Positions 6,908 to 62,600 of a stretch of 64,000 nucleotides of DNA are shown here, in pieces. This DNA comes from Candidatus Berkelbacteria bacterium (lineage in GTDB: Bacteria > Patescibacteriota > UBA1384 > XYA2-FULL-43-10 > CAINNR01). The position numbers and the translations under genes are program-made. Positions within the stretch are counted from its first letter, which is position 1, and the number at the start of each line of letters is the position of its first letter. The DNA is taken from the NCBI GenBank assembly GCA_037142675.1, contig JBAXAF010000004.1, forward strand, positions 326 through 64,325, given 5' to 3'. The notes beneath the pieces are model-generated. The model did no database searches and was not told the DNA's origin. It saw nothing but the letters and a program-made list of their open reading frames with translations.

Positions 6908-6966
6908 ATATCTATTATATCAATACTCCAAAACATGTCAAATATTTGGCAATAGTGTCTAAAGCA

Positions 6967-9990: not shown

Positions 9991-10156
9991 TCCTGTCATC
10001 CTCGGGCTTGCCTGCCCGCCTTTGGAGGGACCCGGGGATCCATTAATAGTTAAGACTTCGCACATATCGTCTAAAAAATCGTCGATAACACATTAATTCT
10101 AGCATAATTGGCACAAATTAGTCAAGTATTATTTGTCTAAATCATTGTCTAATATA

Positions 10157-11625: not shown

Positions 11626-11750
11626 TCCAAGCAACTGCTGTCGGCAACCAACTTCGCCTCCGGGTCGTGATTGATTCGGAGCTTTTTTATTTCAAACTAG
11701 ATCCTTCGGCTACTCTCAGGATGACAATCTAAAAAATTCATGCTAAACTT

Positions 11751-31543: not shown

Positions 31544-31689
31544 CATAATTATCACTCCCGTCCAAGTTTGTCCGATTTGTCAGACAGCTAATTATAGGTG
31601 GGTTACTTGCTAATATCTATACCGATTGACAGAAATACCGAAAAGATCTAAAATTAGTCTATAAATCAGTTGTCTAAAAGGTTCGACAA

Positions 31690-32442
31690 ATGTTTGTTAA
31701 ACAGCTTGAACAATTAGGACTCAATGAAACAGAAGCCAAAACATACTTGGCGCTTTTGAAAATCGGCAGTTCCTCGGTCGGAACTTTAAGCAAAGAATCG
31801 GGCATTGCTAGGACGACTCTTTACTATTCCATTGAAGAGTTGAAGAAGAAGGGTTTTGTCTTTGAAAAGCTTATAGATCAGAAAAAGCGCTTGATCCCAC
31901 GATCGCCGGAGTTCTTGGGTAAAAAAGCTGAGAAACTAGCGCAGCAGGCTCATGAGACGGCTAAGTCGATTTCCAGTCTTATTCCAGCATTAAAAAAGCT
32001 AGCCAAGGAAGATAGCTCTTATTCGACAGTCAACCACTATGAAGGCAAAGAGAGTGTTTGGGAAGTTTTTGAGATTATTCTGCGATCAAATAAAGATAGT
32101 TTGTGGTTTGGCTTTGGTCAGAGTTTTCTTGAGAATTATGATTTTGATTATTTTGTAACCAATTTCAGTAAAAAACGCCGACAGTTTGGACGCACAAAAT
32201 CCTTTAACATAATCCCGCCATTCAAAAGTGCAGCAAAAATAGCCACAAGGGGAGAAACCGATTTTCAAGAATTTCGGTTCTTGGGTAAAGATCAGAACTT
32301 TAATGCTGGTATTTGTATATTTGGAAATAAAATAGCAATTTTTTCATATGACAATGTTTTGTCGGCGACTTTAATTCAAGGCGACGCAATCGCAGAAATA
32401 GCTAGCACTATGTTTAAAATGATATGGAAATCTCTGAGCTAA
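31690..32442 (+). CDS. TrmB-family HTH regulator (paralog 3)
   Basis: LGLNETEAKTYLALLKIGSSSVGTLSKESGIARTTLYYSIEEL; promoter TTGACA-17-TAAAAT at 31625-31653. Confidence 0.8.
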   Translation: MFVKQLEQLGLNETEAKTYLALLKIGSSSVGTLSKESGIARTTLYYSIEELKKKGFVFEKLIDQKKRLIPRSPEFLGKKAEKLAQQAHETAKSISSLIPALKKLAKEDSSYSTVNHYEGKESVWEVFEIILRSNKDSLWFGFGQSFLENYDFDYFVTNFSKKRRQFGRTKSFNIIPPFKSAAKIATRGETDFQEFRFLGKDQNFNAGICIFGNKIAIFSYDNVLSATLIQGDAIAEIASTMFKMIWKSLS

Positions 32443-34137: not shown

Positions 34138-34314
34138 TCTCCTCGCCCTTACAAATTGTTTATCTGAAACTACTTATTATTGCACTTGTAGGGGATCCAA
34201 CAATAACCTGGTTGGATATTTCACAAAAAATAATTTTAGCGCTTGCATTTCGATCTCAAAGATTATACAATTGTGTTAACTAATATCGTTAACAGACAAA
34301 TCTAGTCAGAGGGT

Positions 34315-35094
34315 TTGAAAAAAGGAAAAGGAATGCCAAAGATAAATTTAGAACAATTTGGGATGAGCAGTGAGGAAGCCAAGGTATATTTGGCTCTAGT
34401 AAAGCGTGGGTCGTCGGGAGTAATGGATATCTCCCATGAATCAAATCTTAGTCGCTCAACCACCTATTATCATTTGGAAGCCCTGCTTTCCAAAGGACTG
34501 GTTTCACAATCGTTTAATGGCAAGAAGCACATTTACACACCATCAAAGCCAAAGGTTTTAGAACGAATCTTAGAACAAAAGGAACTGGAACTTGCGGATC
34601 AAAAACAAAGTTTACCCAGCTTGCTAAAACGGATTGAAAACATTGCCGCCCAACAGGCGACGGATCCGGAAGCACAAATATTAAAGGGTAAAATTGGTCT
34701 TTTACAGATTCTTGACAGTGTTCTTGGTGCTTCGGGTGACATTTACTTCATTGGCTCGCATGATGTTGTTCTCAAAAACGAGAGCTTGTTTTCAACAGAA
34801 TTTTTTCTTCGTAATTTTACAGCCAAACGCCGGCAAAAAGGAAAAAGTGTTGCCTGGATCATTGGCGATGAAAGTGAAATTACTTTGCGCCAGAAGCGCG
34901 AACAAGATACGGAGTTTCGGAAAATTAAAGTTTGGTCAGAACTTGCGAACATGAATGGCGGTTTAATTGTCTATGGCTCAAAGGTGTTGTTTTACAGTGT
35001 TTCAGGAGAAGCTACAGCTTATATCATCCACAATCCAGTAACTTCCGAGATCTTAAAAGTTATGTTTAAAATGATATGGAGTTCATTGGAATAA
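34315..35094 (+). CDS. TrmB-family HTH regulator (paralog 4)
   Basis: FGMSSEEAKVYLALVKRGSSGVMDISHESNLSRSTTYYHLEAL. Confidence 0.8.
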   Translation: MKKGKGMPKINLEQFGMSSEEAKVYLALVKRGSSGVMDISHESNLSRSTTYYHLEALLSKGLVSQSFNGKKHIYTPSKPKVLERILEQKELELADQKQSLPSLLKRIENIAAQQATDPEAQILKGKIGLLQILDSVLGASGDIYFIGSHDVVLKNESLFSTEFFLRNFTAKRRQKGKSVAWIIGDESEITLRQKREQDTEFRKIKVWSELANMNGGLIVYGSKVLFYSVSGEATAYIIHNPVTSEILKVMFKMIWSSLE

Positions 35095-42854: not shown

Positions 42855-45800
42855 CTAGGTTATATTTTCGTTTCCGACTATCTCTTTTAATTTTCTCTTA
42901 ACTACTGGGCTTAAGTCAAGGCGGTTTTTTATTTTGATCTCTTCCCAGCCCTCACCATTTTTCGGTACTTTCATAATTACCGGGCTAGTTCCAGGGTGAG
43001 TTGCAATTACAGTTTTTATGTCCTTTAAAATGTGCGGTGCTGAGCCACGAGGTATGGTAATTTGCAGTGGTTCAGGTTTGGTATCAATTGGTGCTGCTGG
43101 CGCTTTTGCTGCTGGCGCTGGTTGATTATATCCTCCGGAATATCCACCGCCATTACCGCCTCCTCCACCGCCCCAACTATTTAATTTCTTCTTTCCCCTG
43201 GGCACGAAATCGGGGATTTTATCATCGCCAACAGGAAAAATTTCTTCGGCTAGTATTTTTAGTTCGCCATCTTTGTTGCTAATGTAGCCATCGACAACAA
43301 CAACCCTGTCCGGTGTGAAAATTGTCGGCGTGGCAGCGAAAATTTTCGGAAAAACCAGAACTTCAATGTTTTTTGTTTGATCTTCGACTTTAATAAAAGC
43401 CATTTTCTGACTATGTTTTTTGGTGATTATTTCCTGAACATTCATAATAATTCCAGCAACTCGGACAAATTGATTGTCCATTTCAGCTGAAATCTCGATC
43501 ATTTTCTTCTGTTGATGAGGTTCAATTAAGGGCGCAATTTCAGACAATGGATGCTCGGAAACGTACATCCCTAAAAGCTCGCGCTCCCAGGCCAATCGTT
43601 GTTTCTTCTCGGCTGGCTGTGTGGCCTCGAATTCAATTTTGGCAGTTGCAATTACGTCTTCACTGAAAAGTGATGACTGATTGGTGTCTCGATTCTTTTT
43701 GGCGCCAGCAGCGAATGCCAGCATTCGTTCCATGTTGAATATCAGCTCGTTGCGCTCAGCTAAATCATCTAAGGCTCCAGCCATCGCTAGTGCCTCTAGG
43801 GATTTTTTGTTAATCACTTTTGATCCGAGCCGCAACAGAACATCGGCAACGTCTTTGAATTTGCCATTATTTTTTCGATCCTCAACAATTTCTTCTGCCA
43901 CCGCAGACCCGACATGTTTTATGGCCGAGAGCCCAAACCTGACATTACCGGTTTCTTTCACCACACCGAAGTCGACAAATGATTCGTTAATCGACGGTGG
44001 AAGCACGGCAATTCCCATTCGTTTACACTCCTCAATTTCCATTGCCAATTTATCCAAATCATCTTTGTTTGAGGTCATAAGTGCCGACATATACTCTGGC
44101 GGAAAGTTGGATTTCAGATAGGCTGTTTGATAGGCGACCAAAGCATAGCTAGCAGCGTGAGCTTTGTTAAAACCGTAACCGGCAAATGTTTCTATTTGAG
44201 TCCAAAGTTCGTTGGTTGTGGCCTCGCTCATACCTCGCTCAATAATTTGGCGGAAAAATTTATCTTTTTGCGCTGACATTTCTTTAATGATTTTTTTGCC
44301 GATTGCTTTACGGAATTTATCAACCTCTTCCCAGTTGTAGCCGGCGAGTTCAATAGCAATCATTAAAACATCGTCTTGATAAACAATTAGCCCCAGCGAC
44401 TGCTTTAAAACCGCTTCTAGTCGTGGGTCGGAGTATTTGATTCTTGATGGATTGTGTTTCCTGGCAACATATTCGGGAATAAAGGCCATTGGCCCTGGGC
44501 GGTAGAGCGCCACCATGGCCATAATGTCGAGAATGGTTGTCGGCCGAAGTTCCTTAATGTTTTTGCGCATGCCTTCTGATTCGAGTTGGAAAACACCAAT
44601 TGTTTCGCCGCGCGAGAGCATTTCGTAAGTTTTTTTGTCATCAAGCGGGATTTCGTCCAATATTATTTGAACGCCTTGAGTTTTGGCGATGATCTTTATA
44701 ACATTTTGAATAATTGACAGGTTCGCTAAGCCCAAGAAGTCCATTTTAATTAAGCCAATACCGTCCTCACCCACGGCGTGCATTTCGTATTGAGTAATTA
44801 GACGGTCGCCCTTAGCATCCATCATAACCGGCGTATAGTTCGTAATCTCTTCCGGGGCAATAACAACACCGGCAGCGTGGACAGATGCATGTCTAACGAC
44901 GCCCTCGAGCCTTCTGGCAATATCAATGCACTGTTTAACCCTTGGGTCAGAGTCGTATAAATTTCGTAGTTCGGCCACTTCTTTTAGCGCTTTATCTAAA
45001 GTGGTTTTTAGCGGCGGAATTAATTTGGCAATGATATCAACCTCGGAGTAACTCATGCCGAGTACGCGGCCGACGTCGCGGACGGCCATTCTGGCTGCCA
45101 TAGTTCCAAAGGTAATAATTTGTGCCACGTGGTCGCTGCCGTATTTGTTGGAAACATAGCGAATAATTTCGTCCCGCCCAGCGTCAGCAATATCAGCGTC
45201 AATATCAGGCGCAGATGGACGAAATGGATTTAAAAATCGTTCAAAAGGTAAGTTATAATCAAAAGGATTTAATTGTTTGCCGGTAATTCCTAGTGCGTAG
45301 GAGATGAAGCAGCCGGCTGCTGAGCCCCTGGTATTGGTTGGGATTCCTTGTTGCTTGGCAAAGTGAAAGAAGTCTTGAACAATTAAAAAGTAGCCTAAAT
45401 ACCCCTTGTCCTTAATTACTTTGAATTCATAATCAATACGTTCGCGGATTCGCGGAGTAATTTCTGAAACTATTTTTGGCAATCTTTCATCAATAAGTTT
45501 GCGTAAGTATGTTTCGTATGTTTCACCAGCCGGCAGCGGAAACTCTGGGAACCTAAATTTACCGAGCTCAATTTGCACGTCGCATTTATTCATGACCTCA
45601 ATTGTATTGGTTAGCACTTCTGGGTGGTCGGGGAAGTTGCTCGACATTTGGGCGTGAGTTAGGAGAGAATAGTCATCGCCTGCCATTGTCATTCTGTTGG
45701 TGTCGCCGACTAACTTACCAGTTTGCAAACAAATCAGCGCGTCGTGAGCAATGTTGTCATCTGAATTAACGTAGTGCGGATCGTTTGTGGCAATAACTTT

Positions 45801-46421
45801 TAATCCAAATTCTTCGGCCAGCTTAAAAATATTGTTGTTGGCAATTTTTTGTTCCGGCACAGTGTTTGGGTGATGTTGAACTTCAAGATAAAAATCCTCT
45901 TTGGGGAAAATTTCCAAATATTCTTTTAGCGCTTTTCTGCCCTCCTCAATATTTTCCAATGATTTTCGCGGGATTTCTCCCTGGACGCAAGCGGAGCAAG
46001 CAATTAAACCCTCAGAGTGCTCTTTGAGTAGTTTTTTGTCGATGCGCGGTTTGTAATAATAGCCATCCAAGTGGGCGAGTGATGTTAGTTTCATTAAGTT
46101 TCGGTAGCCGGCTTCATTTTTAGCTAATAAAATCAAGTGATAAGTAGAGGAGTCAACCCTTGGTTGCTTGTCTTTCATTGTCCTGGGCGCAACGTAGGTT
46201 TCAATACCTAGAATAGGCTTAATTCCTTGCTTGGTGCACTCCTCATAAAACTCAACAATGCCGTGCATCACGCCGTGGTCAGTTAAAGCTAATGCCGGCT
46301 GCCCATCATTTTTAGCCTTTGCTACCAAATCAGGAATCTTGCCCATGCCGTCTAGCATAGAATAATGTGAGTGAACGTGGAGATGCACAAAGTCTTTAGT
46401 TTTTGGTTTGTCGTCAGGCAT
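42855..46421 (-). CDS. dnaE: DNA polymerase III alpha subunit
   Basis: 1188 aa; PHP domain HLHVHSHYSMLDG; polymerase core. Confidence 0.93.
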   Translation of the reverse strand: MPDDKPKTKDFVHLHVHSHYSMLDGMGKIPDLVAKAKNDGQPALALTDHGVMHGIVEFYEECTKQGIKPILGIETYVAPRTMKDKQPRVDSSTYHLILLAKNEAGYRNLMKLTSLAHLDGYYYKPRIDKKLLKEHSEGLIACSACVQGEIPRKSLENIEEGRKALKEYLEIFPKEDFYLEVQHHPNTVPEQKIANNNIFKLAEEFGLKVIATNDPHYVNSDDNIAHDALICLQTGKLVGDTNRMTMAGDDYSLLTHAQMSSNFPDHPEVLTNTIEVMNKCDVQIELGKFRFPEFPLPAGETYETYLRKLIDERLPKIVSEITPRIRERIDYEFKVIKDKGYLGYFLIVQDFFHFAKQQGIPTNTRGSAAGCFISYALGITGKQLNPFDYNLPFERFLNPFRPSAPDIDADIADAGRDEIIRYVSNKYGSDHVAQIITFGTMAARMAVRDVGRVLGMSYSEVDIIAKLIPPLKTTLDKALKEVAELRNLYDSDPRVKQCIDIARRLEGVVRHASVHAAGVVIAPEEITNYTPVMMDAKGDRLITQYEMHAVGEDGIGLIKMDFLGLANLSIIQNVIKIIAKTQGVQIILDEIPLDDKKTYEMLSRGETIGVFQLESEGMRKNIKELRPTTILDIMAMVALYRPGPMAFIPEYVARKHNPSRIKYSDPRLEAVLKQSLGLIVYQDDVLMIAIELAGYNWEEVDKFRKAIGKKIIKEMSAQKDKFFRQIIERGMSEATTNELWTQIETFAGYGFNKAHAASYALVAYQTAYLKSNFPPEYMSALMTSNKDDLDKLAMEIEECKRMGIAVLPPSINESFVDFGVVKETGNVRFGLSAIKHVGSAVAEEIVEDRKNNGKFKDVADVLLRLGSKVINKKSLEALAMAGALDDLAERNELIFNMERMLAFAAGAKKNRDTNQSSLFSEDVIATAKIEFEATQPAEKKQRLAWERELLGMYVSEHPLSEIAPLIEPHQQKKMIEISAEMDNQFVRVAGIIMNVQEIITKKHSQKMAFIKVEDQTKNIEVLVFPKIFAATPTIFTPDRVVVVDGYISNKDGELKILAEEIFPVGDDKIPDFVPRGKKKLNSWGGGGGGNGGGYSGGYNQPAPAAKAPAAPIDTKPEPLQITIPRGSAPHILKDIKTVIATHPGTSPVIMKVPKNGEGWEEIKIKNRLDLSPVVKRKLKEIVGNENIT

Positions 46422-46518
46422 TTTGTCTGGCTTAATCTTATATTTTATGGTAGAATTACGATTGAATTAAGAATTATGAATTAAGAATTATGGCAAAAAC
46501 ATTCATGATTCATACCTC

Positions 46519-47784
46519 ATGATTCATAATTCATTTTATTTTGTGTTGGGTCGGGAAAATAAAATTAGCCAAACAGAATTGGAGTGCGTTTTGGCTAGTT
46601 TTGATTTTGGTTTTTCCCCCGCGAACATTTCTATCTTATCTGATCAAGTTTTAGAGATCAAACTAGAGGCTAGCAGCGACCAAGTCAAAAAATTAATTGA
46701 AATTCTTGGCGGCACGGTGAAAATCTTTCAGAAAATCGCTCCAGCTAATGAAAAAATCGAGAATCTGCTTTTGGCTGAAGATAAATCATCAAAAATAATT
46801 TTTGGCTTATCAAATTACTCTGTTGCCAAGGTCGATACCTTTCGAATGGCGTTGTCGGCTAAAAAGGCGGCAAAAAAATCAATTCGAATTATCGACGGCA
46901 AAGAGGGTGGCAGACTTTCAAGCGCTCAATCTTTTCAGTACAAAATGGATATTGATAATGTTGAGTATGGTTTATTTGAAACTGGAATTGGCAAGTTAAT
47001 TGCAGTGCAAAATATCAACGAGTGGACTCGCCACGACTACGGTAAGCCAAAGTCAGACGCTAAATCAGGCATGTTGCCACCGAAACTGGCTAGAATGATG
47101 GTGAACTTGGCCGTAGGCCAAGTTAATGACGAAACCAGAATTAATAATGACGAAGACAGTGGTTCCTCATTCCTCATTCGTCATTCGGGTTTACGACCTT
47201 TGGTCGTTGATCCCTTTTGTGGTTCGGGAAACGTTTTAATTGAGGCAGTTTCTGTTGGTTGTAATGTCGTTGGTTCTGATCTGTCAGAAAAAGCTGTATC
47301 TGACACGAAAGAAAATCTTGAATGGTTCCTTAAATCAGTCATCCCCGATCCAGTCGGGGATCCACTAATAGTAGATTCCCGCCTTTGCGGGAATGACATT
47401 GTTGTTGCTGATGCCGCTAAGTTTGACTTCTCTGACATCAAAGAAGATTTTATCATCGCCACTGAGCCATTTTTAGGCCAACCGCGAACATCAAAATTAC
47501 GAATCGAAGAAGAGGCCGAAGCCAAAAGCGAAATTACTCAATTGTATATGGATTTTCTTCGCAACTTGAAGCTAACAGCCAATAGCCAAAAGCTGAAAGC
47601 TATCGCAATAGTTTTTCCTCTCTTTGAACTGGCCAATGGAAAAAAGTTATCAATTTTCAATGATTGTGTTGACTTTATCCGTGATATCGGCTACACTACT
47701 GTTTGTCCACCTTTGGAATATGGACGTGATTATCAAGTTGTCAAACGACAAATCGTTATATTAAAGCTATCAGCTGACAGCTAA
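46519..47784 (+). CDS. THUMP/UPF0020-type class I SAM-dependent RNA methyltransferase-like protein
   Basis: DPFCGSGNVLIEA motif I; PPKLARMMVNLA. Confidence 0.6.
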   Translation: MIHNSFYFVLGRENKISQTELECVLASFDFGFSPANISILSDQVLEIKLEASSDQVKKLIEILGGTVKIFQKIAPANEKIENLLLAEDKSSKIIFGLSNYSVAKVDTFRMALSAKKAAKKSIRIIDGKEGGRLSSAQSFQYKMDIDNVEYGLFETGIGKLIAVQNINEWTRHDYGKPKSDAKSGMLPPKLARMMVNLAVGQVNDETRINNDEDSGSSFLIRHSGLRPLVVDPFCGSGNVLIEAVSVGCNVVGSDLSEKAVSDTKENLEWFLKSVIPDPVGDPLIVDSRLCGNDIVVADAAKFDFSDIKEDFIIATEPFLGQPRTSKLRIEEEAEAKSEITQLYMDFLRNLKLTANSQKLKAIAIVFPLFELANGKKLSIFNDCVDFIRDIGYTTVCPPLEYGRDYQVVKRQIVILKLSADS

Positions 47785-47805
47785 TAGCTATTAGCTTAAA
47801 GAAAA

Positions 47806-48087
47806 ATGGCACATAAGAAAGCTGGCGGTAGTACAAGTTTAGGGCGGGATTCGGTCTCCAAGCGACTTGGGGTCAAGATTTTTGGTGATGAAAAAATTGT
47901 TGCTGGTAATATCATCATTCGTCAAAAAGGTACCAGATACTTGGCAGGTGCTAATGTTGGCGAGGGTAATGATCGCACACTTTATGCTAAAAAAGACGGT
48001 TTTGTTAAATATTCTCAAATCAAAAAAACTACATTTTCCGGTTCAAAGATCAAAAAGACCAGGGTTGCAGTAGCTGATCAAAAGTAA
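47806..48087 (+). CDS. rpmA: 50S ribosomal protein L27
   Basis: [27 protein letters not shown]... Confidence 0.92.
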
Positions 48088-48099
48088 GTTTCTGACAAA

Positions 48100-48640
48100 A
48101 GGCATCTTGAAAGATGTTTTTTGTCAGCCACTTGTTGTCGGCTGCATTCTGTGAAAACGGAGAGGTGCCCCAATGATTTGGGGAGTTGTATGGCAGACAT
48201 GCCCCTTAAGAGACGCGATAGCGCGTTCTCCATCCACGTAAGGGTAAGGTCCCAGATGAACATCGAAGCACACACCGTAGTCGTGCCTCCTGGTCTCTTG
48301 GGGCGAAGCCCCGTGACCTAGAGGCTACATTATGTCGAAGGATGCCAAGTCGAAAGAAGAGCCAGTAGAACAACGTCCTGGATCGCCAATGGCTAGCGCA
48401 CTGGCGACAGAGTGGGCGACTGGCTATTGGGGCGAGTCCAGTGTTGACGCACGCGGCAAGGCTGGGCAGAAGTAAAACAATAGTAAGCGCTCGAGGTTCA
48501 CGTGCGATTCCTCGATCGCAATCGAACAACACTCACTAATCTGGTGAGAGTTACCGCGAGAAAAGCGGATGTTTGCCCGGCGCAGGCGTGAGAGCCCCTG
48601 CGCCGCTCTCTCTGAGTTCAATCAATTGAAAATAGAGATG
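48100..48640. other. GC-rich 540-nt unassigned segment: candidate structured ncRNA and/or a 49-aa ORF (48332-48481)
   Basis: Markedly GC-rich versus flanks; many local hairpins (ccccaatgatttgggg, cggcgcaggcgtgagagcccctgcgccg); no convincing long ORF. Confidence 0.3.
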
Positions 48641-48682
48641 GGCGGATCAGAAAAATGACAAAATCAGAATGAAGAATGACGA

Positions 48683-49312
48683 ATGAAAGTAAAAGAAAAA
48701 ATTATGCACAAAGTAAACCTTTCAAAATTCATGAAAAAGAATATCCCCGACATTCACACCGGAGATACTGTTAAAGTTCACCAGAAAATCAAAGAAGGTG
48801 ACAAGGAGCGCGTACAGATTTTTGAAGGCCTGGTTATTGCCACCCACGGTGGGAAAAGCCTCGATGGTTCGTTTACTGTTCGCAAAGAATCATTTGGCGT
48901 TGGCGTTGAAAGAATTTTCCCAGTTCACTCCCCACGTGTTGTTAAAATAGAACGAATTAAACAATCAAAAGTTCGTCGAAGCAAACTATATTTTATGCGC
49001 GAACTTTCCGGTAAAAATGCCAGGTTGAAAGAATTAAATCGCGATTACGCAATGTGGGAAGAAAAAGGCGTTGAAGAAGAGCTAGAAAAAATCGCCGAAG
49101 AAACTGCCAAACTTGCTGAAGCCGCCGCCGCCGAAAAAGAAGCCGAAGAAGCCGAATTTGAGAAAAAGGCCGAAACTGCCATTAAAGCCCATGGTCACAC
49201 TCCTGGCGAAAATGAGCCAAAAGACGAAGAAGATGTTACTCCAGGCTCAGCCGAAGATGAGAAAAAAGCCCAGTCAACTGAAGAAAAAGCCGACAAAGCC
49301 GCAGAAAAATAA
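48683..49312 (+). CDS. rplS: 50S ribosomal protein L19 with Glu/Ala/Lys-rich C-terminal extension
   Basis: ...TGDTVKVHQKIKEGDKERVQIFEGLVIATHGG... Confidence 0.88.
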   Translation: MKVKEKIMHKVNLSKFMKKNIPDIHTGDTVKVHQKIKEGDKERVQIFEGLVIATHGGKSLDGSFTVRKESFGVGVERIFPVHSPRVVKIERIKQSKVRRSKLYFMRELSGKNARLKELNRDYAMWEEKGVEEELEKIAEETAKLAEAAAAEKEAEEAEFEKKAETAIKAHGHTPGENEPKDEEDVTPGSAEDEKKAQSTEEKADKAAEK

Positions 49313-49363
49313 TATTTACTTGCTCTATAGAAAAAACGCCCCAGAAATGGTGGCGTTTTTTGG
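49297..49363 (+). repeat. 67-nt direct repeat copy 1 (rplS 3' end plus terminator)
   Basis: agccgcagaaaaataatatttacttgctctatagaaaaaacgccccagaaatggtggcgttttttggt. Confidence 0.9.
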
Positions 49364-49429
49364 TGTTGTTGATTTATTTGATGTGATACAATTATTTTAA
49401 ATATTTCAAATAAAAACTAGGAGCACAAA

Positions 49430-50848
49430 ATGGGCGATAATGAAGACGAACTACAATCACTTGGGGAAGAGCAACGAATATTTGAGGCCCAGCAGGACGA
49501 AGCAGCGCGGTTGGCTGCGTCTACCCGCGAAGCGGAGCTGCGGGCTGATCACATTGCTCATGTGGCGGCGGCTAGCCACTCTGATCTTAGAAAAGCTGCG
49601 GTCGAACGGGACGCAGAGATGAGGGCGACTGGTTTGGCTGAGATACGCGAAACACTGGGTTCGCCCGAAGGTGTTCAGGAAAAAGCCGACGTACTAAGAT
49701 CAGAATTTGACGCCAGCTTGCTCGAGATTGCAGAATTAAGACAAAGCATTGCAAGAATCAGGGAATTTGTCCCAGAAGGCAGGCCAATGTCACCAGTTCT
49801 TGCAACTAAGATTGAGGCAATCGAACAGCGTCGAGCTGGAATTGAGAATGGTCTAGGTGCATTGCTGCAAAAGTCAGACGAGGCAAAAAGTTTAGCAGAG
49901 AATGTTAAAAGTTACGATCGGCTAAAGACTGAAATCGATCTGCTCCGTCAGGGAACAGATGAAATCTATGCCATGCCTGGAGTCGCTGATATACTTTACC
50001 AAGAAGCGATTGATACAGACGAAAAGGAAACTTGGGCTGTTGAAGCCGGGAAACAGGAGCGTCGAATAGCCAGAGAGCAAGCATTGGCTATCGAAAAAGA
50101 AACCGCCCAAGCGGCCGAAAAGGAGAAATCGCTCAAAGAAGAGATAATCAAGAAAATAAGTGATCGCGCTAGCCGCATACCGACAAATACAGGCACGGAA
50201 AAAGACCCTCGCCGAGTTGAGTTCACTGAGCCATTAATTTCTGCTTTTTTAGATGATGCATTGGAACAATCTGGAATTAATGGAATTGAACTAACCGCAG
50301 CTAGTGCCGACAGGAGAAGAGAGTTAATTAGAGCCGTAGCTCAACAAATTGAATTTGGTTTAAATACCCGTTGGAATGGACAAGACTATCCCAATGGCTT
50401 TGGCTCTGATCCAAGCGAGGCAAAAAGGGTTTATGCTCAAAGTGATCCTAAGAACTTCGGAAGACAACTTGGTAACATGCTGGGGACTCAAATGCACGAG
50501 GCGGGTAGTCCTGATGTGCTAGGCCATGTTATTGGTTCCGATAGTGGCGTTCGGGTTCGTGAGGCTCGTAAATGGCATAGAAGCATTCCGTTTATTGTTG
50601 GTTTTGCTAGGGGAACACAGGAGGTTCGTTCGGCAACAAAAATTCAAGAACAACCATATCGTTTGGTTGACGCCCATGCTTCGCAGGCTTTATTTGGAGG
50701 TCTAGCAAGTCGTGTAAGGCTTGGTGAAATGGTTTTCAGAGATAATATTGCCAGATCTGCGTTTGAGCAAGGAGTTACAAGGTCTGAGCAAATTTATCAG
50801 AGAGCTCATAGCGTCGACGCCAATGAACAGGTAGCCGCAGAAAAATAA
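49430..50848 (+). CDS. Hypothetical coiled-coil protein (472 aa) flanked by direct repeats
   Basis: RBS taggagc; moderately GC-rich; ends ...QVAAEK, reusing the repeat-encoded last codons. Confidence 0.6.
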   Translation: MGDNEDELQSLGEEQRIFEAQQDEAARLAASTREAELRADHIAHVAAASHSDLRKAAVERDAEMRATGLAEIRETLGSPEGVQEKADVLRSEFDASLLEIAELRQSIARIREFVPEGRPMSPVLATKIEAIEQRRAGIENGLGALLQKSDEAKSLAENVKSYDRLKTEIDLLRQGTDEIYAMPGVADILYQEAIDTDEKETWAVEAGKQERRIAREQALAIEKETAQAAEKEKSLKEEIIKKISDRASRIPTNTGTEKDPRRVEFTEPLISAFLDDALEQSGINGIELTAASADRRRELIRAVAQQIEFGLNTRWNGQDYPNGFGSDPSEAKRVYAQSDPKNFGRQLGNMLGTQMHEAGSPDVLGHVIGSDSGVRVREARKWHRSIPFIVGFARGTQEVRSATKIQEQPYRLVDAHASQALFGGLASRVRLGEMVFRDNIARSAFEQGVTRSEQIYQRAHSVDANEQVAAEK

Positions 50849-50901
50849 TATTTACTTGCTCTATAGAAAAAACGCCCCAGAAATGGTGGCGTTTTTTTGG
50901 T
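50833..50901 (+). repeat. 67-nt direct repeat copy 2
   Basis: Identical to copy 1 apart from one extra T in the T-run. Confidence 0.9.
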
Positions 50902-50959
50902 TAAGTTGCTTGATGGCTAGCGATTAAAAAAACCGACCAAGCGAGGGCGAGGTCGGGTG

Positions 50960-51556
50960 CTATTGGCCACCGAGGCCAGTTAGGTTATAAGAAAATCCAA
51001 TTGAGACTTGTGGGTCGTTGGTAAATAGCTTGATCTCGAGGTGTCTACCAACTTTGCGAACGACTCCAACACCAAAGTTGTGCTCCTTGGCGCTCCACAG
51101 GCCACGGAGTTGGATTTTCGTCCCTTTGACCGATAGTTCCCAGCGCTCTATCTCCAGCGTAGGTGACATTTCGGCCTTCACCATTAAAGGCTGGTAATAA
51201 CGGACAGAATTCCTACTTGTTAGGTAGTGAACCTGAAAGTAGATTTCCTGGTCCCCGGCCAGAAACACGGTCGGCCCTGGCTTCTGCACCACTCTCAGTC
51301 CAAGTAGAAACGGCTTGTGCAGACAGGACATTCCCGCCCCGATCACCCTGAAACTCATTACAGCTTCGTCCGTTTTGCCGCCCCCATCCCTTGTCAGCCG
51401 CAAGCTCATTGTTGTCGTATAAAGCGTAGACGATACGATGTTCTTGCTAGCCTCAAGGCTAATGACAATGGGAAGACTTGGCCAATCTTCTTTTTTTTCC
51501 TCTGCCCAAAGTGGTAGGCAGAAGAAAAATGCGACTATAATCATCGCGATTTTCAT
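50960..51556 (-). CDS. GC-rich secreted protein (cassette L)
   Basis: Start MKIAMIIVAFFFCLPLWA signal peptide; minus promoter TTCACA-16-TATAAT; terminator ccgaccaagcgagggcgaggtcgg at 50927-50950. Confidence 0.55.
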   Translation of the reverse strand: MKIAMIIVAFFFCLPLWAEEKKEDWPSLPIVISLEASKNIVSSTLYTTTMSLRLTRDGGGKTDEAVMSFRVIGAGMSCLHKPFLLGLRVVQKPGPTVFLAGDQEIYFQVHYLTSRNSVRYYQPLMVKAEMSPTLEIERWELSVKGTKIQLRGLWSAKEHNFGVGVVRKVGRHLEIKLFTNDPQVSIGFSYNLTGLGGQ

Positions 51557-51664
51557 TTTGCCCACATCCTTTGGTATGCGCAGATGGTTCCGCGGCAATT
51601 ATAGCACTTAAATTTGAATTGTGAACCAAGAATTATGGATGATGGGATAATTAGTTACGTTGTA

Positions 51665-51693
51665 TTGACAAATCAATGCAACATATGTTACAA
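51665..51693 (+). promoter_or_regulatory. Promoter TTGACA-17-TTACAA(T) giving a leaderless transcript
   Basis: ttgacaaatcaatgcaacatatgttacaat; ATG at 51704 lies about 3 nt after the predicted TSS. Confidence 0.5.
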
Positions 51694-51703
51694 TTTAATC
51701 ACT

Positions 51704-51958
51704 ATGCAACATAACGATTACATCTCAACAATTGAAGCATCTAGCATTCTTGGGTTGGACCGAACTCAGGTATTCCGCCTGATCCAGAGTGGAAAAATTC
51801 CGGCTGTAAAAATCGGCCGTAATTTCGCAATTAAAAAATCAGACCTGGGAATTTACGGTGGAGAAGTATCAACAAAAGAAAAAAAGAACATCGAACTATC
51901 GGTAGACAGAGTTTTTGCGGAATATGGTGACGTGATCAAAAAATTGGGAGAGGAGTGA
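51704..51958 (+). CDS. HTH (excisionase/MerR-like) antitoxin candidate
   Basis: ISTIEASSILGLDRTQVFRLIQSGKIPAVKIGRNFAIKKSDL; 4-nt overlap (ATGA) with the downstream toxin. Confidence 0.65.
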   Translation: MQHNDYISTIEASSILGLDRTQVFRLIQSGKIPAVKIGRNFAIKKSDLGIYGGEVSTKEKKNIELSVDRVFAEYGDVIKKLGEE

Positions 51959-52377
51959 TCTACAAAATCTCAATCGAAGAGGTTGAGCTTATTGCTCACC
52001 GAATGGCAAAAAATATAATGGAGTGGGATGAGCCGATTCCCGATTTTTCAACTCGCTATCCGAATGTTCTGGAGAGCTGCTTGGCTGTGCCGTTTCAATC
52101 GTTTGGCCGCAAAGATTTGTATTCTACTTTGGTCAAAAAGGCGGCAATTTTGTTTTATTTAATGATAAAAAACCATCCGTTTCAAAACGGAAATAAACGG
52201 GTTGCAGTGACCACACTTTTCACCTTCTTGGGAAAAAATGACAAGTGGCTGAAAGTTGATAATCAAGAACTCTATAATTTTGCTGTTTGGGTCGCATCTT
52301 CACCAGCAGAATTTCAGGCAGAAATTCTCGCCGCCGCTGAGAAATTTATTAAAAGAAATTTAGTTAGTTCAAGCTAA
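51955..52377 (+). CDS. doc: Doc/Fic-family toxin
   Basis: HPFQNGNKRVAVTTLFTFL matches the Doc motif HxFx(D/N)GNKR. Confidence 0.8.
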   Translation: MIYKISIEEVELIAHRMAKNIMEWDEPIPDFSTRYPNVLESCLAVPFQSFGRKDLYSTLVKKAAILFYLMIKNHPFQNGNKRVAVTTLFTFLGKNDKWLKVDNQELYNFAVWVASSPAEFQAEILAAAEKFIKRNLVSSS

Positions 52378-52380
52378 AAA

Positions 52381-52728
52381 ATGGATAAAACAAAGAACAA
52401 AACCACCGGAAATGCTGGGGAAGATTTGGCAGCGGAGTTTCTCAACCGACAGAAATACAAAATTCTTGGCCGCAACATTTCTTATCCTTTTGGGGAAATT
52501 GATATTTTGGCGGATGATAGGGGGACTATTGTGATTGTTGAAGTCAAAACTGTCAAAGGAGGTGGCTGGGGAAGCGCAGTTGATCTGGTCCGGAATAAAA
52601 AACAGCAGAAATTGAGACTTTTGGCGCTGGAAATCGAGAGGGAATATCCGAATAAAAATATTCGAATTGATGTTATTGGCGTTGATAATGGAAAAATCAA
52701 TTATATAAAAAACGCCGTCGAGGGCTAG
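52381..52728 (+). CDS. YraN/UPF0102-family PD-(D/E)xK endonuclease
   Basis: GEDLAAEFLNRQKYKILGRN...GEIDILADDRGTIVIVEVKT. Confidence 0.75.
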   Translation: MDKTKNKTTGNAGEDLAAEFLNRQKYKILGRNISYPFGEIDILADDRGTIVIVEVKTVKGGGWGSAVDLVRNKKQQKLRLLALEIEREYPNKNIRIDVIGVDNGKINYIKNAVEG

Positions 52729-52747
52729 CGAATTTGGTCTAAAAACC

Positions 52748-52907
52748 CTTGACAACCTGATGTAAATCAGGTATTTTGACATCTGGTGGTTGTCTTTGCG
52801 CCGAGCGTGGATGCGGAGTGCGAAGGCATTACTACTACCGCGTTTTACGCGGCTGCCCCCCACGGCAGGGCCAGGGTCCATGTGATCCTGGCCACTATTT
52901 TTTTTAG
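52748..52907 (+). promoter_or_regulatory. Promoter plus GC-rich structured leader of about 120 nt ending in an intrinsic terminator, immediately upstream of gltX (T-box/attenuator-like)
   Basis: TTGACA-17-TATTTT at 52748-52776; hairpins ccgcgttttacgcgg, ctgccccccacggcag, ggccagggtccatgtgatcctggcc plus T8. Confidence 0.45.
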
Positions 52908-52990
52908 CCCGACTTTGTGCTAAGCTGAGGGAGATAAAATGAAGTTAGTACACGGATCTATTGCGCGGATTATCACGGATGGGAATAACA

Positions 52991-54409
52991 ATGGAACAAT
53001 CAAACAATAAAACAATGATTCGCACCCGCTTTGCTCCAAGTCCAACCGGTGAACTTCACATTGGTGGTGCCAGAACTGCACTATTTTCATATTTATTCGC
53101 CAAAAATCAAGCTGGCGAATTTTTGTTGCGCATTGAAGATACTGACCGCGAGAGATTTGTTGAGGGTGCAACTGAGCGGATTATCGAATCACTGGGCTGG
53201 CTGGGAATTGTAGCTGACAACGCTGGCAAGCCAATGGTTCAGTCTGAGCGCCTGGATAAATATCGAAAAGTCGCTTTTGATTTAGTAAATGAGGGGAAAG
53301 CTTACCTTTGCACTTGTACTAAAGAAAAACTAGCAGAGGACCGCGAGCGTCAGCAAAAAGAAAATAAACCACCGCGATACGAAGGTCATTGTCGTGATGC
53401 TAGTATAGACATTAAGACCCTAGCCGAAGGTTGCTACACCATCCGGATGAAGATGCCACAATCAGGGACTATTATTGTTGATGATTTGATCCGAGGCCGT
53501 GTGGAATTCGATGCGGCCTTAATTGACGATCAGGTAATTCTAAAATCTGACGGTTTCCCGACATATCACCTAGCATCTGTTGTTGATGACCACGAAATGG
53601 AAATTACCCATGTCATTCGCTCGGAAGAGTGGTTGTCGTCAACGCCAAAGCATGTTGTTCTTTATGAAATGCTGGGCTGGAGTGCGCCGGAATTTGCTCA
53701 CCCTTCAATGATTTTGGGACCGGATCACTCAAAGCTTTCGAAGCGCCACGGTGCAACATCAGTTATCGATTATAAAAATCAAGGTTATTTACCAAAGGCG
53801 CTAGTGAACTTTATGGCTCTTTTAGGCTGGAATCCGAAGGACGACAGAGAAATCTTCTCGCTAGAAGAATTAATTGGCGAATTTAAACTGGAAAACGTTA
53901 ATAAAAGTGGCGCAATTTTTGACATTGAAAAACTGAATTGGATGAATGGGGAGTATATCCGAGTCGAAAGTCGAAAGTCGAAAGTCGAAAGTCTGAAGGA
54001 TTTTGGTATAGAAGAATTATCAGCCGGAGAATTGGAACTAATTGGTCGTGGCGGGTTTAAAACTTTGAAAGAAGCGGCGGACTATATCATTCAATTGCGC
54101 AAAACACCGGAGTACGATTCATCACTCCTAATTTTCAAAAAATCCGATCGTGAAAAAACCACTATTGGGTTGAAAGCTGCCAGCTGTCAGCTGCTAGCTG
54201 TTAGTTTATGGGAACAAGAAGAAATACAAAAAACCTTGGAATCAATCGTATCTGAGAAAAATTTAACGAACGGCGATGTATTTTGGCCTGTGCGGGTGGC
54301 ACTATCTGGCGCGGAAAAGTCACCGAGTCCAGTTGAATTATTACTAGCTCTCGGTAAAGAAGAATCAATCAAACGAATTACAAAAGCTATAGATGACCTC
54401 AAAAACTAA
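52991..54409 (+). CDS. gltX: Glutamyl-tRNA synthetase
   Basis: IRTRFAPSPTGELHIGGARTALFSY (HIGH), KLSKRHG (KMSKS); start 52991 or 53015. Confidence 0.9.
   Translation: MEQSNNKTMIRTRFAPSPTGELHIGGARTALFSYLFAKNQAGEFLLRIEDTDRERFVEGATERIIESLGWLGIVADNAGKPMVQSERLDKYRKVAFDLVNEGKAYLCTCTKEKLAEDRERQQKENKPPRYEGHCRDASIDIKTLAEGCYTIRMKMPQSGTIIVDDLIRGRVEFDAALIDDQVILKSDGFPTYHLASVVDDHEMEITHVIRSEEWLSSTPKHVVLYEMLGWSAPEFAHPSMILGPDHSKLSKRHGATSVIDYKNQGYLPKALVNFMALLGWNPKDDREIFSLEELIGEFKLENVNKSGAIFDIEKLNWMNGEYIRVESRKSKVESLKDFGIEELSAGELELIGRGGFKTLKEAADYIIQLRKTPEYDSSLLIFKKSDREKTTIGLKAASCQLLAVSLWEQEEIQKTLESIVSEKNLTNGDVFWPVRVALSGAEKSPSPVELLLALGKEESIKRITKAIDDLKN
53963..53997 (+). repeat. Heptanucleotide tandem repeat (gtcgaaa)x4 plus a degenerate copy inside the gltX CDS
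   Basis: gtcgaaagtcgaaagtcgaaagtcgaaagtctgaa. Confidence 0.9.
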
Positions 54410-56154: not shown

Positions 56155-56193
56155 ATAGTCGTATATTAGTGACGAAAATAAGAGTAGTAAAAA

Positions 56194-56928
56194 ATGGAAA
56201 CTTTGGAGATTCTAAAATCAATTGGATTAAATGACAATGAAAGCAAGGTTTACCTAGCTGTCCTTGAACTCGGTGCATCGACGGTTTTGCCCATCTCAAA
56301 AAAGTCCGGAATAAAACGGACCTATTGTTACGATATTTTGGAAAGCTTGCTAAAAAAGGGTTTTGTTAGTCACTTTAGTAAAAATGGTCGCCGTCGCTAC
56401 CTGGCTGCTGACCCAAAGCAAATCGAGGCGTTGTTAGAAAATAAATTAAACCGATTTTCAGAAGCTTTGCCACAACTGCGGTCAATTTATAATTCATCGC
56501 CAGAAAAACCAACAATTCGATTTTTTGAGGGTAAGGAAATCAAAAATATTTATGAAATGTTGCCGTCAGCGAAATACATTGATTCCATAGCCTCCCCTGA
56601 GTACATTTACCAATATCTTGGCAATTACTTTGATGAAATTGTAAAATTAATAGCTAAAAAGAAGGTAGCTGTTCGGGAAATTGTGCCAGAGAAAAATAAG
56701 GATGCTGGCTATATTAAGAATTTTCAAAAGCCAGACGAGGAGCTTAGATTTTTACCAAAAGAAGTCCAGTTGTCGACGGATATAATAATTTTTGATGACA
56801 AGGTTGCACTGATTTCATTTGCAAAAAAGGTTCACGCGGTGTTAATTGAAAGTTCGAGTATTGTGGAGACTCAGCGCTATATGTTTGATTTGATCTGGCA
56901 GATGGCAAAAAGTCCGTCTTCGAGGTAG
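56194..56928 (+). CDS. TrmB-family HTH regulator (paralog 5)
   Basis: IGLNDNESKVYLAVLELGASTVLPISKKSGIKRTYCYDILESL. Confidence 0.8.
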   Translation: METLEILKSIGLNDNESKVYLAVLELGASTVLPISKKSGIKRTYCYDILESLLKKGFVSHFSKNGRRRYLAADPKQIEALLENKLNRFSEALPQLRSIYNSSPEKPTIRFFEGKEIKNIYEMLPSAKYIDSIASPEYIYQYLGNYFDEIVKLIAKKKVAVREIVPEKNKDAGYIKNFQKPDEELRFLPKEVQLSTDIIIFDDKVALISFAKKVHAVLIESSSIVETQRYMFDLIWQMAKSPSSR

Positions 56929-60271: not shown

Positions 60272-61771
60272 ATGAAAAAATTTTTTCAGGCGCCTAATTT
60301 TAGAAGTTGGCAGTTTTGGCTAAAGATTTTTTTGGTCGTTCTAATTATTGCTGGCGGGATCGCTGGTATATTGTTGATTAAAAAACACCGAGTAGCGGCA
60401 CCAGCCGCTGAGATTAAAGCTCCTGTTGAAGTTGCTGTTACCCCAATTGCTCCACCAGAAGAAGCAAAAAAAGCTGTTATCGCTGCGCCTCCTAAGGTTA
60501 AGACTTCTGGAAAAACTTCAACTAAGGCCAATTCAGATGGATCAAAGACGGTTACATCTGCCACTGGACCAGTTAATTCTGCCAACACAGCTGTTGCTGC
60601 CGCGGCTGGGCCTTCGGCTGGTATTGCCGGTATTCATTATATCGACCAAACAGGTTCGCATGCTGATTTGGGTGATCAACTTAAAACGTATATGTCGAAT
60701 AACTTATTAGTTAAAGGCGAAGTTAGCAGTATGTACTCGATAATTCTGCAAAACGCCGGAGACACCGGCTGGGCCGGACTTTATTCCGGGTCGTATAATC
60801 AAGACGCGAACGGCCAAATAACTTCCGCCTGGGGCTATATAACGCTAAACAGCTACTATTATGAAGGTAATCCATACTTCCTTGACTACATGAAACTAAT
60901 TTTGTCGCACGAATATGGCCACCACTACTCCTTGTATTACAAATGGATAGTTTGGCAGATTCCTTCTGGTCAACGCTTCCCCGATTCTTATTATTCCGTT
61001 CGGCCGCTGACAAAGTCAGGAACAGCTCCTGATTACTCACTGGGTTGGGCCAACTGCGATGCGGAAATAATTGCGGAGGATTACTCTTATCTCTATTCCG
61101 GTTATGGCTATCATGGCATGGCAGCGACCTACGGTTATCCATCTGCTGGGACAAAAACTTGGTTGGTTAATGAGCCAGCCGGGTCATCTGCTTCAGCGCC
61201 AGCGTCAGACAGCGCACCAACAGTCTCAATTACCGCACCAGCCAGTGGCGCAACTGTTTCTGGAACGGTGCCATTTTCAGCCACGGCTTCTGATGATAAT
61301 GGTGTAACAAAGGTGAGCTTTTACATTGACAACAATTTATTAGTTGAAGACTCCGTCGCACCATATGAAACGTCATTCAATTCTGCAAGTTATGGCAATG
61401 GAGTTCATTCTTTGCGGGCTAGAGCAACTGACACGGCTGGACAAACTGCTGATTCGACAGTCTCTATTATCATTAATAACGCGACGACCGACACGGAAAA
61501 CCCGACGGTTACCATTGGCGACCCAGCTGACAATCCTCATGCTTGGGCAAATGGTAATTTACACATTGCAGTTACGGCAACAGACAACGTTGCGGTGCAG
61601 AAAATCGAGATCTATATTAATGATCAACTAGCTCTAACTGAGAACTCAGGATCAGTTTCTGCTGTTTGGAATTATAATGATGCTCCAGCCGGAACCTACA
61701 CACTAAAAGCAAAAGCCTACGATGCTTCCGGCAACACCGCCGAAACTAGCATTGTGGTAAACAAAAGTTAG
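60272..61771 (+). CDS. Membrane-anchored putative zinc metalloprotease (HExxH) with C-terminal Ig-like repeats
   Basis: N-terminal TM; Pro/Ala-rich linker; LSHEYGHH; two repeated modules of about 90 aa. Confidence 0.6.
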   Translation: MKKFFQAPNFRSWQFWLKIFLVVLIIAGGIAGILLIKKHRVAAPAAEIKAPVEVAVTPIAPPEEAKKAVIAAPPKVKTSGKTSTKANSDGSKTVTSATGPVNSANTAVAAAAGPSAGIAGIHYIDQTGSHADLGDQLKTYMSNNLLVKGEVSSMYSIILQNAGDTGWAGLYSGSYNQDANGQITSAWGYITLNSYYYEGNPYFLDYMKLILSHEYGHHYSLYYKWIVWQIPSGQRFPDSYYSVRPLTKSGTAPDYSLGWANCDAEIIAEDYSYLYSGYGYHGMAATYGYPSAGTKTWLVNEPAGSSASAPASDSAPTVSITAPASGATVSGTVPFSATASDDNGVTKVSFYIDNNLLVEDSVAPYETSFNSASYGNGVHSLRARATDTAGQTADSTVSIIINNATTDTENPTVTIGDPADNPHAWANGNLHIAVTATDNVAVQKIEIYINDQLALTENSGSVSAVWNYNDAPAGTYTLKAKAYDASGNTAETSIVVNKS

Positions 61772-62517
61772 ATCTTTTTTCCGATTCCCCAAAGTATGTC
61801 AAAAATATTTTTAAAAACCTTAACCAGGTTTTTATTTTTGATTTCAATCACCATTGGCTCTGTTGCCGAATGGAGAACTAAAATGTCATCGCCAAAAATA
61901 TTGAAGTTTCCCAAGTCAGCCATCTTTTTTTCGATTAGCCGATATTCATATAACTTTGGAAGACTATTTTTTAATTTCATTTCGAAATCGTTTTCATTAA
62001 AAATCAACATTTGCCATTTAATCATTCTTTCTTGTTGGATTTTCAGAAATTTGCTGGTTAGTTTTCCCATATGCTCTTGCCAAAGAGGCCCGATTGACCC
62101 GGCGATAAAATCTGTTGTTCCAGTTGGCAACTTAGAATAAGCATCCAGCCAAAATCGGCGATAGGACTCCAGCCCTTCATAAATGGTTATTTCAGGTGAT
62201 TCTGCTTGGATCATCTTTTTTAATTCAGGCACTAAGGTTTTTGCTAGTTGAAATTCCTCAGCAGCGATATCAAGCAACTTTTCTGGATCAAGCGATTGGA
62301 AGTACTTAATTTTTGATTTCTCAAAACTAAAGACTAGTTTTTTGCTAATAAGTTTTTTTAATGATTCATAAACCACACTGCGATGCAGCTGAGTTTTTTC
62401 AATGATTTTTCCTGCGGAAGTTGTACCGATTTCTAAAAGGGCAGTGTAAGTTTTGGCTTCACTGCTAGTTAGGTGTAATTGTTCCAAGCGCGATCTAATT
62501 TGCTCGTTAATTGCCAT
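61768..62517 (-). CDS. TrmB-family HTH regulator (paralog 6)
   Basis: LHLTSSEAKTYTALLEIGTTSAGKIIEKTQLHRSVVYESLKKL. Confidence 0.8.
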   Translation of the reverse strand: MAINEQIRSRLEQLHLTSSEAKTYTALLEIGTTSAGKIIEKTQLHRSVVYESLKKLISKKLVFSFEKSKIKYFQSLDPEKLLDIAAEEFQLAKTLVPELKKMIQAESPEITIYEGLESYRRFWLDAYSKLPTGTTDFIAGSIGPLWQEHMGKLTSKFLKIQQERMIKWQMLIFNENDFEMKLKNSLPKLYEYRLIEKKMADLGNFNIFGDDILVLHSATEPMVIEIKNKNLVKVFKNIFDILWGIGKKI

Positions 62518-62600
62518 AATTTTTTATAAGTTTATTTTACTTTACTAAAAATATCTTATCACAAAACAATTAGATAATCAATATATGTTGTCGAAAATAG

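Follow-up and report, generated by a model that had tools for sequence, protein, structure and literature searches.

A single-gene unit between two identical copies of the rplS terminator in Candidatus Berkelbacteria: probably an old accessory gene with repeats homogenised by gene conversion

Phage morons, a concept that comes from lambdoid phage genomics, are autonomous promoter-gene-terminator units situated between conserved genes. Direct repeats around a gene are a feature of the integrative elements (phages, integrative and conjugative elements, and integrative and mobilizable elements) that occupy the 3′ ends of tRNA, tmRNA and protein genes, and also of the integrative mobile elements exploiting Xer (IMEX), which are Xer-dependent, lack a recombinase and carry dif-like repeats. 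Concerted evolution of short intragenomic duplicates by gene conversion is known from bacterial rrn operons and tuf genes. Here we describe a locus that shares traits with each of these. It lies in a 64,000-nt stretch (hereafter the window; positions 326 to 64,325 of contig JBAXAF010000004.1, assembly GCA_037142675.1, numbered from its first letter) of a Candidatus Berkelbacteria metagenome-assembled genome, in ordinary chromosome close to dnaA and dnaN. Behind rplS, the gene of ribosomal protein L19, stands a 472-aa open reading frame (ORF), at the end of which the 3′ end and terminator of rplS are found once more. The repeat unit is called R, with copy R1 behind rplS and copy R2 behind the ORF. 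The species of the window is called A, and its relatives B, C, E, F, G, H, I, and J (J being the same as D).

Like a moron, the unit adds one gene, equipped with a predicted promoter and a terminator of its own, between conserved neighbours; its presence varies among relatives, and different cargo genes are found in the same slot. This moron-like anatomy (an extended −10 element in A, B, and C, R2 as the predicted terminator, and variable occupancy) is read from sequence and belongs to a non-phage host. Unlike a moron, the unit sits in a cellular chromosome beside a ribosomal protein gene, its terminator is copied from the upstream gene, and it shows no composition anomaly (G+C 0.45–0.51 versus about 0.42–0.45 in the flanks). 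As with integrative elements at gene 3′ ends, direct repeats rebuild the 3′ end of the target and empty sites exist, but no integrase was found, the cargo is a single gene, the unit occurs nowhere else, the site has been occupied since before three species split, and the repeats evolve in concert and have diverged in C. As in IMEX, direct repeats of a chromosomal site flank a unit that encodes no recombinase. However, its repeat is the terminator hairpin behind rplS and not a 28-bp dif site at the replication terminus, the window is near dnaA and dnaN, and no motif for XerC/D-type binding is evident, no search aimed at one having been made. With the rrn operons and tuf genes it has in common that the copies are identical within a genome and different between species, with a lineage-specific insertion in both copies, whereas here the unit is 65–85 nt long, is mostly a non-coding terminator, and bridges the ends of two unrelated genes. 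Nothing specific was found in the literature as a described equivalent. We consider it probable that a moron-like accessory gene has long occupied a variable slot here, that its terminator, borrowed from rplS, is homogenised with its source by gene conversion, and that one of its alleles was replaced by recombination.

R1 and R2 are 100% identical across 65 nt (AGCCGCAGAAAAATAATATTTACTTGCTCTATAGAAAAAACGCCCCAGAAATGGTGGCGTTTTTT), with 1536 nt from start to start, and none of 100 dinucleotide shuffles gave a 65-nt match. Beyond the 65 nt, R1 has a run of six T and R2 of seven, followed by GGT in both; similarity to the right of the T-tracts in A was not significant (1020 of 5000 shuffles scored as high). 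The first-pass annotation had described the repeat as 67 bp, identical apart from one extra T, which is essentially right, and had correctly assigned to copy 2 the AAEK* end and the terminator of the inserted ORF. It had also placed the last six rplS codons in copy 1; the number is four. The coding part of R is 16 nt, (A)GCC GCA GAA AAA TAA, that is, one preceding base, the codons for AAEK, and the stop. It is followed by an 18-nt spacer, an A-tract, the stem-loop CGCCCCA-GAAA-TGG(U)GGCG, and a T-tract.

With its A- and U-tracts paired, the hairpin has a folding energy of about −17 kcal/mol. It contains a GNRA-type GAAA loop and a bulged U. Because of this bulged U, R was overlooked by a simple terminator scan, and it was folding that revealed the hairpin. 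Across species, the rplS hairpin has a standard pair in 93.8% of cells, and E shows a compensatory double change from G-C to A-U. A, B, C, and J share an identical hairpin core, and that of I is almost the same, even though synonymous sites are saturated. At the gathering threshold, Rfam matched only tRNAs in the window. The SpF10 sRNA was rejected as an identity for R, the match being sub-threshold and terminator-like (24 bits versus 60).

Table 1. Features of the rplS locus in the window (species A).
Feature	Position	Strand	Remarks
rplS (L19)	48683–49312	+	Pfam PF01245 Ribosomal_L19, E=2.6e-41; last 4 codons and stop within R1
R1	49297–49361	+	AAEK codons and stop 49297–49312; hairpin 49337–49355; T6 49356–49361; predicted intrinsic terminator of rplS
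Predicted extended −10 promoter of the ORF, TGaTACAAT	49384–49392	+	Consensus resemblance
Shine-Dalgarno, AGGAG	49419–49423	+	6 nt ahead of the ORF ATG; read from sequence
472-aa ORF	49430–50848	+	Last 4 codons and stop within R2
R2	50833–50897	+	Same as R1, then extra T at 50898; hairpin 50873–50891; ORF stop codon and predicted terminator
Hairpin terminator of the convergent gene	50926–50959	−	CCGACC...GGTCGG and T-run on the minus strand
Convergent gene, 198 aa (up to 212 aa)	50960–51556	−	Right border of the variable slot
Island of high A-versus-B divergence	49362–51232		60-nt block-by-block identity, NG86 dS; left edge at R1

The 472-aa ORF would form a small transcription unit of its own, consisting of an extended −10 element, a Shine-Dalgarno sequence, the ORF, and a terminator (Table 1), with promoter and terminator activity predicted from these signals. 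A TGnTAnAAT element, resembling an extended −10, can be read downstream of the rplS T-tract in A, B, C, E, and F. The terminator of the convergent gene keeps its structure, but not its sequence, in B, C, E, and I.

The slot in the relatives was examined by locating contigs that encode close L19 homologues and then reading their DNA. A search for rplS in genome contigs mostly matched unrelated phyla, and only L013 was useful. In B (L105, L011, and L012), an ORF with 69% aa identity to that of A occupies the same place, and the ORF and the genes to its right are syntenic. One contig of B contains both R copies, which match each other exactly from AAGCCGCAG... to ...GGCGTTTTTG (about 84–85 nt). 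In C (L007–L010), the ORF is 451 aa long and has 44% aa identity to that of A by tblastn and BLASTP (49% over aligned codons), and the gene order is that of A: dnaE, methyltransferase, rpmA, rplS, ORF, convergent gene of ~200 aa, yraN, and gltX. The hairpin is again duplicated in C, behind rplS and behind the ORF, and the two copies are 88% identical over 41 nt, a stretch that falls short of the coding regions.

Other relatives have a single hairpin. In I (L113), it is followed by the terminator of the convergent gene and the convergent gene itself, and in J (L114 and L104) by the yraN promoter; both slots are empty of the ORF. The slot of H (L111) is also empty, and its hairpin has diverged with the GAAA loop and the pairing kept. 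Unrelated ORFs of 76 aa and 185 aa fill the slot in E (L106) and F (L108), respectively; neither was significantly similar in blastp to the 472-aa ORF or to the other. What stands behind the rplS terminator thus varies between species, and a second hairpin copy is seen solely with members of the 472-aa family. The empty sites of I, H, and J bear out the earlier proposal that the gene is an insertion relative to relatives. That the insertion is recent does not hold, as the same gene occurs at the same place with a duplicated hairpin in B and C, and the copies in C have diverged. The first-pass annotation itself had named an arrangement shared by all relatives with diverged repeats as a result that would speak against integration; the diverged copies in C agree with this in part.

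The identity of R1 and R2 can be read by comparing A with B. The spacer is TACTTGCTCTATAG in both copies of A and GTCATCCTGAGTGAAAACGAAGGATCTAATAT in both copies of B, so that the copies agree within each genome and the spacers differ between the two species at both positions. The B-specific spacer contains, in both copies, a mini-palindrome that A lacks. Since one mutation strikes one copy, a change found in both copies of B means that sequence was transferred from copy to copy after the lineages split. The shared B-specific spacer thus marks the identity of R within a genome as homogenisation and not as a sign of recent insertion. The simplest route would be gene conversion between the 65–85-nt tracts.

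The ends of the coding regions fit into the same pattern. The ORFs of A and B are 8 residues longer at the end than their orthologue in C and end in AAEK, like L19; the tract shared in A and B reaches 16–17 nt into both coding regions, so that L19 and the ORF terminate alike in AAEK*. The original stop of the ORF may once have been overwritten by a conversion tract that came from rplS. That the ORFs of A and B continue for 8 codons where their C counterpart has already stopped suggests a transfer from rplS to the ORF. The copies of C, no longer homogenised, have drifted apart and illustrate the outcome without recent homogenisation. As a separate observation, the insert in the B spacer belongs to a dispersed mini-palindrome family, a related member of which (TTGTCATCCTGAGAGTAGCCGAAGGATCTAG) is found on the minus strand at 11700–11726 of the window.

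The ORF and its flanks also differ in age. Nucleotide identity between A and B is 0.92–1.00 in the flanks, drops to ~0.57–0.87 right after R1, and recovers at ~51232 inside the convergent gene, whose C-terminal-coding half is part of the divergence island (Table 1). At the protein level, A and B are 98.6% identical in L19, 97.8% in the nearby Fic protein, 96% in the helix-turn-helix (HTH) protein, 90.5% in the convergent gene, and 69% in the ORF. By the Nei-Gojobori method (NG86), synonymous divergence (dS) is 0.25 for L19, 0.17 for HTH, and 0.24 for Fic, with ratios of nonsynonymous to synonymous divergence (dN/dS) of 0.04, 0.10, and 0.04, respectively, while the ORF has a dS of 1.32 and a dN/dS of 0.17. 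In the convergent gene (whole-gene dN/dS 0.17), the proportion of synonymous differences (pS) is 0.03 in the N-terminal half and 0.46 in the C-terminal half. The pS of the ORF between A and B, 0.62, is comparable to that of housekeeping genes between A and C (0.54–0.76). The ORF is thus a dS outlier between near-identical flanks, which means that the ORF alleles of A and B coalesce much deeper than the flanks do. This pattern indicates a putative import of a divergent ORF allele by homologous recombination with its left junction at R1.

Relationships in the flanks are themselves in conflict. In DnaE, C is closer to E (93%) than to A (91%); the L19 and L27 of C are closest to those of J; and in YraN and GltX, E groups with I. 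These conflicting relationships, from comparing window positions 42855–54409 with L007, L106, L113, and L114, indicate recombination breakpoints around the rplS slot. The rplS locus is a hot spot of recombination and gene turnover.

From these observations, the following course can be proposed. Acquisition of the ORF would predate the divergence of A, B, and C and would have been accompanied by duplication of the rplS 3′ end with its terminator. The duplicate terminator would now end the ORF, and the two copies would exchange sequence by homologous recombination (gene conversion). Within a group of related Candidatus Berkelbacteria, the ORF would be a lineage-restricted accessory gene, the variable slot that it fills being bounded by the rplS terminator and the convergent gene. 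One of the A and B alleles would later have been imported by homologous recombination.

Several points weigh against this course of events. Gene conversion is deduced from the pattern and was not observed directly, and repeated excision and re-integration via R, or independent re-duplication, would give the same pattern. Species that bear the ORF number three in the databases searched, and B is known solely from contigs of ~3 kb, so that the near-identical flanks amount to four genes. Moreover, A, B, and C form no clean clade in the flanking genes, so that a one-time ancient gain would have to be followed by losses or by recombinational transfer. Deletion by recombination between the two R copies is an obvious route for such losses.

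Searches for signs of a mobile element were negative. No recombinase or transposase was found in the unit, in the gene tables of ±6 kb, among 30 scanned ORFs of the window, or by a crude motif scan. The unit consists of one ORF without a Pfam domain above the curated cutoff. The six inverted-repeat pairs between 48000 and 52500 are imperfect (71–93% complementary), and none lies at the ends of the unit. Homologues of the ORF or unit were absent from phage records, plasmids, and viral contigs, and the metagenome scan showed no ORF+R unit at other loci. Presence/absence variation was not seen within the A population, as every contig with an A-type L19 or an A-type convergent protein shows an occupied site. 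A transposon or insertion sequence is not indicated by a repeat of 65–85 nt without inverted repeats at the ends or a transposase domain, and we know of no transposon target-site duplication near this length, the usual range being 2–15 bp. Nor does the unit look like an integron cassette, which would have an attC site after the ORF and an IntI/attI platform, for the 19-nt terminator stem-loop has no R″/R′ core sites and no integrase was found in the parts of the window that were scanned.

The arrangement itself can be taken as real. An assembly artefact, in the form of a repeat-induced loop or a strain chimera with no contiguous molecule behind it, could draw on the fact that several other assemblies break at or near R or within the N-terminal part of the ORF. 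However, the rplS-R-ORF junction is present in four independent assemblies or samples (European Nucleotide Archive twice, Logan, and the Joint Genome Institute, JGI) and the ORF-R-downstream junction in further independent assemblies, so that both recur in different samples and with different assemblers. In addition, both R copies lie on one JGI contig in B and on several contigs in C, and the contig name k141_938509 suggests an assembly k of 141, which exceeds the repeat. We find an artefact hardly credible. It is likewise most improbable that R is a generic dispersed terminator or module like the repetitive extragenic palindromes, which would follow both genes by chance. These genomes do contain families of small palindromic repeats, but a dispersed module has many copies per genome, and at up to 3 mismatches the 64-kb window holds no copies beyond the two. 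The metagenome-wide hairpin scan found only this locus in the relatives, behind rplS and this ORF, plus chance matches within GC-rich coding sequence, and R matched no viral contig. The search for further copies, proposed by the first-pass annotation, thus shows R to be specific to the locus and not a common terminator module.

Two further alternatives would make the unit mobile. Att-type integration was one of the two origins offered by the first-pass annotation, next to a recent cassette duplication. In the form considered here, R1 and R2 would be the attL and attR of a cassette of ~1.5 kb, which a trans-acting tyrosine or serine recombinase inserted recently and independently into the rplS 3′ end of A and B, with the local target duplicated on each occasion. 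The direct repeats, perfect over 65 nt, reconstitute the rplS 3′ end, I, H, and J have empty sites, close relatives differ patchily in occupancy, and independent insertions would also give identity within genomes together with R differences between species. Of the earlier reading, the inserted gene stands. A fresh scar of recent integration or transposition is not supported: in C, the gene occupies this site too, with repeats that have diverged, and all contigs of the population are occupied. The recombinase whose presence had been proposed as a check was not found in the regions scanned. No evidence of mobility was obtained either, as the cassette was not met with elsewhere in the metagenome scan or among viral and plasmid sequences. 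Furthermore, an attP with each host's own spacer variant would need prior residence and homogenisation there. We judge att-type integration distinctly unlikely. Somewhat more room, though still doubtful, is left for a portable cassette that needs no dedicated recombinase. Recombination between the R copies would loop out a 1536-bp circle (R, promoter, and ORF), or DNA would be taken up, and RecA-dependent re-insertion would use the rplS terminator as a shared landing pad. This would be in keeping with the constancy of the hairpin core in A, B, C, J, and nearly so I despite saturated synonymous sites, with patchy occupancy in a group of 90–93% DnaE identity, and with an ORF allele far older than its flanks in an island whose left junction is at R1. 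If true, such a recombinase-free landing pad would explain both the patchy occupancy of the slot and the old ORF allele, with exchange between Berkelbacteria lineages. But the right edge of the island lies inside the convergent gene, away from R2, so that ordinary homologous replacement fits better, the assemblies showed neither circles nor empty-site variants, and 65 nt is a short substrate for efficient homologous recombination. An old accessory gene with homogenised terminators therefore remains our preferred explanation, ahead of att-type integration or a recent cassette duplication.

Breaks within the first ~20–90 codons of the ORF (49490–49690) were observed in several assemblies. L004 and L006 both end at ~49492, L117 and L116 begin about 33 and 87 codons into the ORF, respectively, and L011 begins roughly 35–50 codons in. 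These breaks might be due to the co-occurrence of A-type and B-type alleles, as in the sister samples Ga0194043 and Ga0194053. An apparent fusion of the ORF with SmpB (P0004) was noted in L012 (ERZ4223250 NODE_204685, coverage about 1.08), which matches B exactly for 700 nt (the rplS end, R, and the first ~154 ORF codons) and then runs in frame into SmpB-like sequence. We treated it as a chimeric contig and probably not a real fusion.

A search of 5.8 billion proteins with the 472-aa sequence returned 3 homologues, and one of 1.84 billion cluster representatives returned 2; this small number implies that the family is confined to this clade. The dN/dS of 0.17 between A and B shows that the ORF is a real gene under purifying selection. 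The protein is predicted to be all-helical, with long N-terminal helices (residues ~1–250) and a better-conserved C-terminal half (~260–460). An AlphaFold2 (AF2) model from the 3-sequence alignment had a predicted local distance difference test score (pLDDT) of 54, that is, low confidence. The family had no match in PHROGs or PADLOC, and a profile search against PDB gave weak coiled-coil noise alone. Two candidate assignments from Pfam/NCBIfam were rejected as sub-threshold, DUF6844 (15 bits versus a cutoff of 27) and the PleD family (19 bits versus 474).

Some other features of the window are recorded here. The C-terminal tail of L19 (49058–49312), ~85 residues long, is a low-complexity sequence rich in Ala, Glu, and Lys, and the length of L19 varies strongly among the relatives (165–230 aa). 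Upstream of rplS, a gap of ~590 nt (48088–48682) separates it from rpmA; its G+C reaches 0.56 in 400-nt windows, versus about 0.37–0.46 nearby. C, E, F, H, I, and J have gaps of 630–840 nt in this position, which G, a more distant relative, lacks. Rfam gave no match in the gap at the gathering threshold or at E≤5. Conservation within the gap is limited to certain blocks. One is the rpmA terminator, and another, in the centre, may hold a small ORF, with a zinc-ribbon-like CxxC...CxxC pattern in E and I. An element of ~45 nt directly ahead of rplS, CTCTCTGAGTTCAATCAATTGAAAATAGAGA, at about 48608–48650, is also conserved and could be an rplS leader. A palindromic element, GATTCCCGCCTTTGCGGGAATG, lies in frame inside the methyltransferase gene (46519–47784) at 47374–47395. 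Members of the same family were also found in the rpmA-rplS gap of E and H. The element resembles a short palindromic repeat of the dispersed kind whose insertion into coding sequence is tolerated.

To the right of the slot, between the convergent gene and yraN, an HTH_17 and Fic/Doc pair (51614–52377) resembles a toxin-antitoxin system. It is present in A, B, and H and absent from C, E, I, and J, and represents a second variable cassette nearby. The window further contains six paralogues of TrmB-family HTH regulators (6122–6919, 9238–10092, 31678–32439, 34306–35091, 56191–56925, and 61771–62523), that is, within 64 kb of a small genome.

The case reveals no new mechanism. It does show that perfect flanking repeats need not signal the recent insertion of a mobile element, because a terminator duplicate of 65–85 nt can stay identical for a long time by gene conversion, and this calls for caution in the automated calling of att sites and genomic islands. 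Berkelbacteria belong to the Candidate Phyla Radiation, a large group of uncultivated bacteria, and the locus illustrates, cleanly and on a small scale, how the streamlined genomes of this group accommodate accessory genes behind a conserved one. The slot downstream of rplS emerges as a hot spot of recombination and gene turnover, and it houses an orphan protein family on which purifying selection acts.

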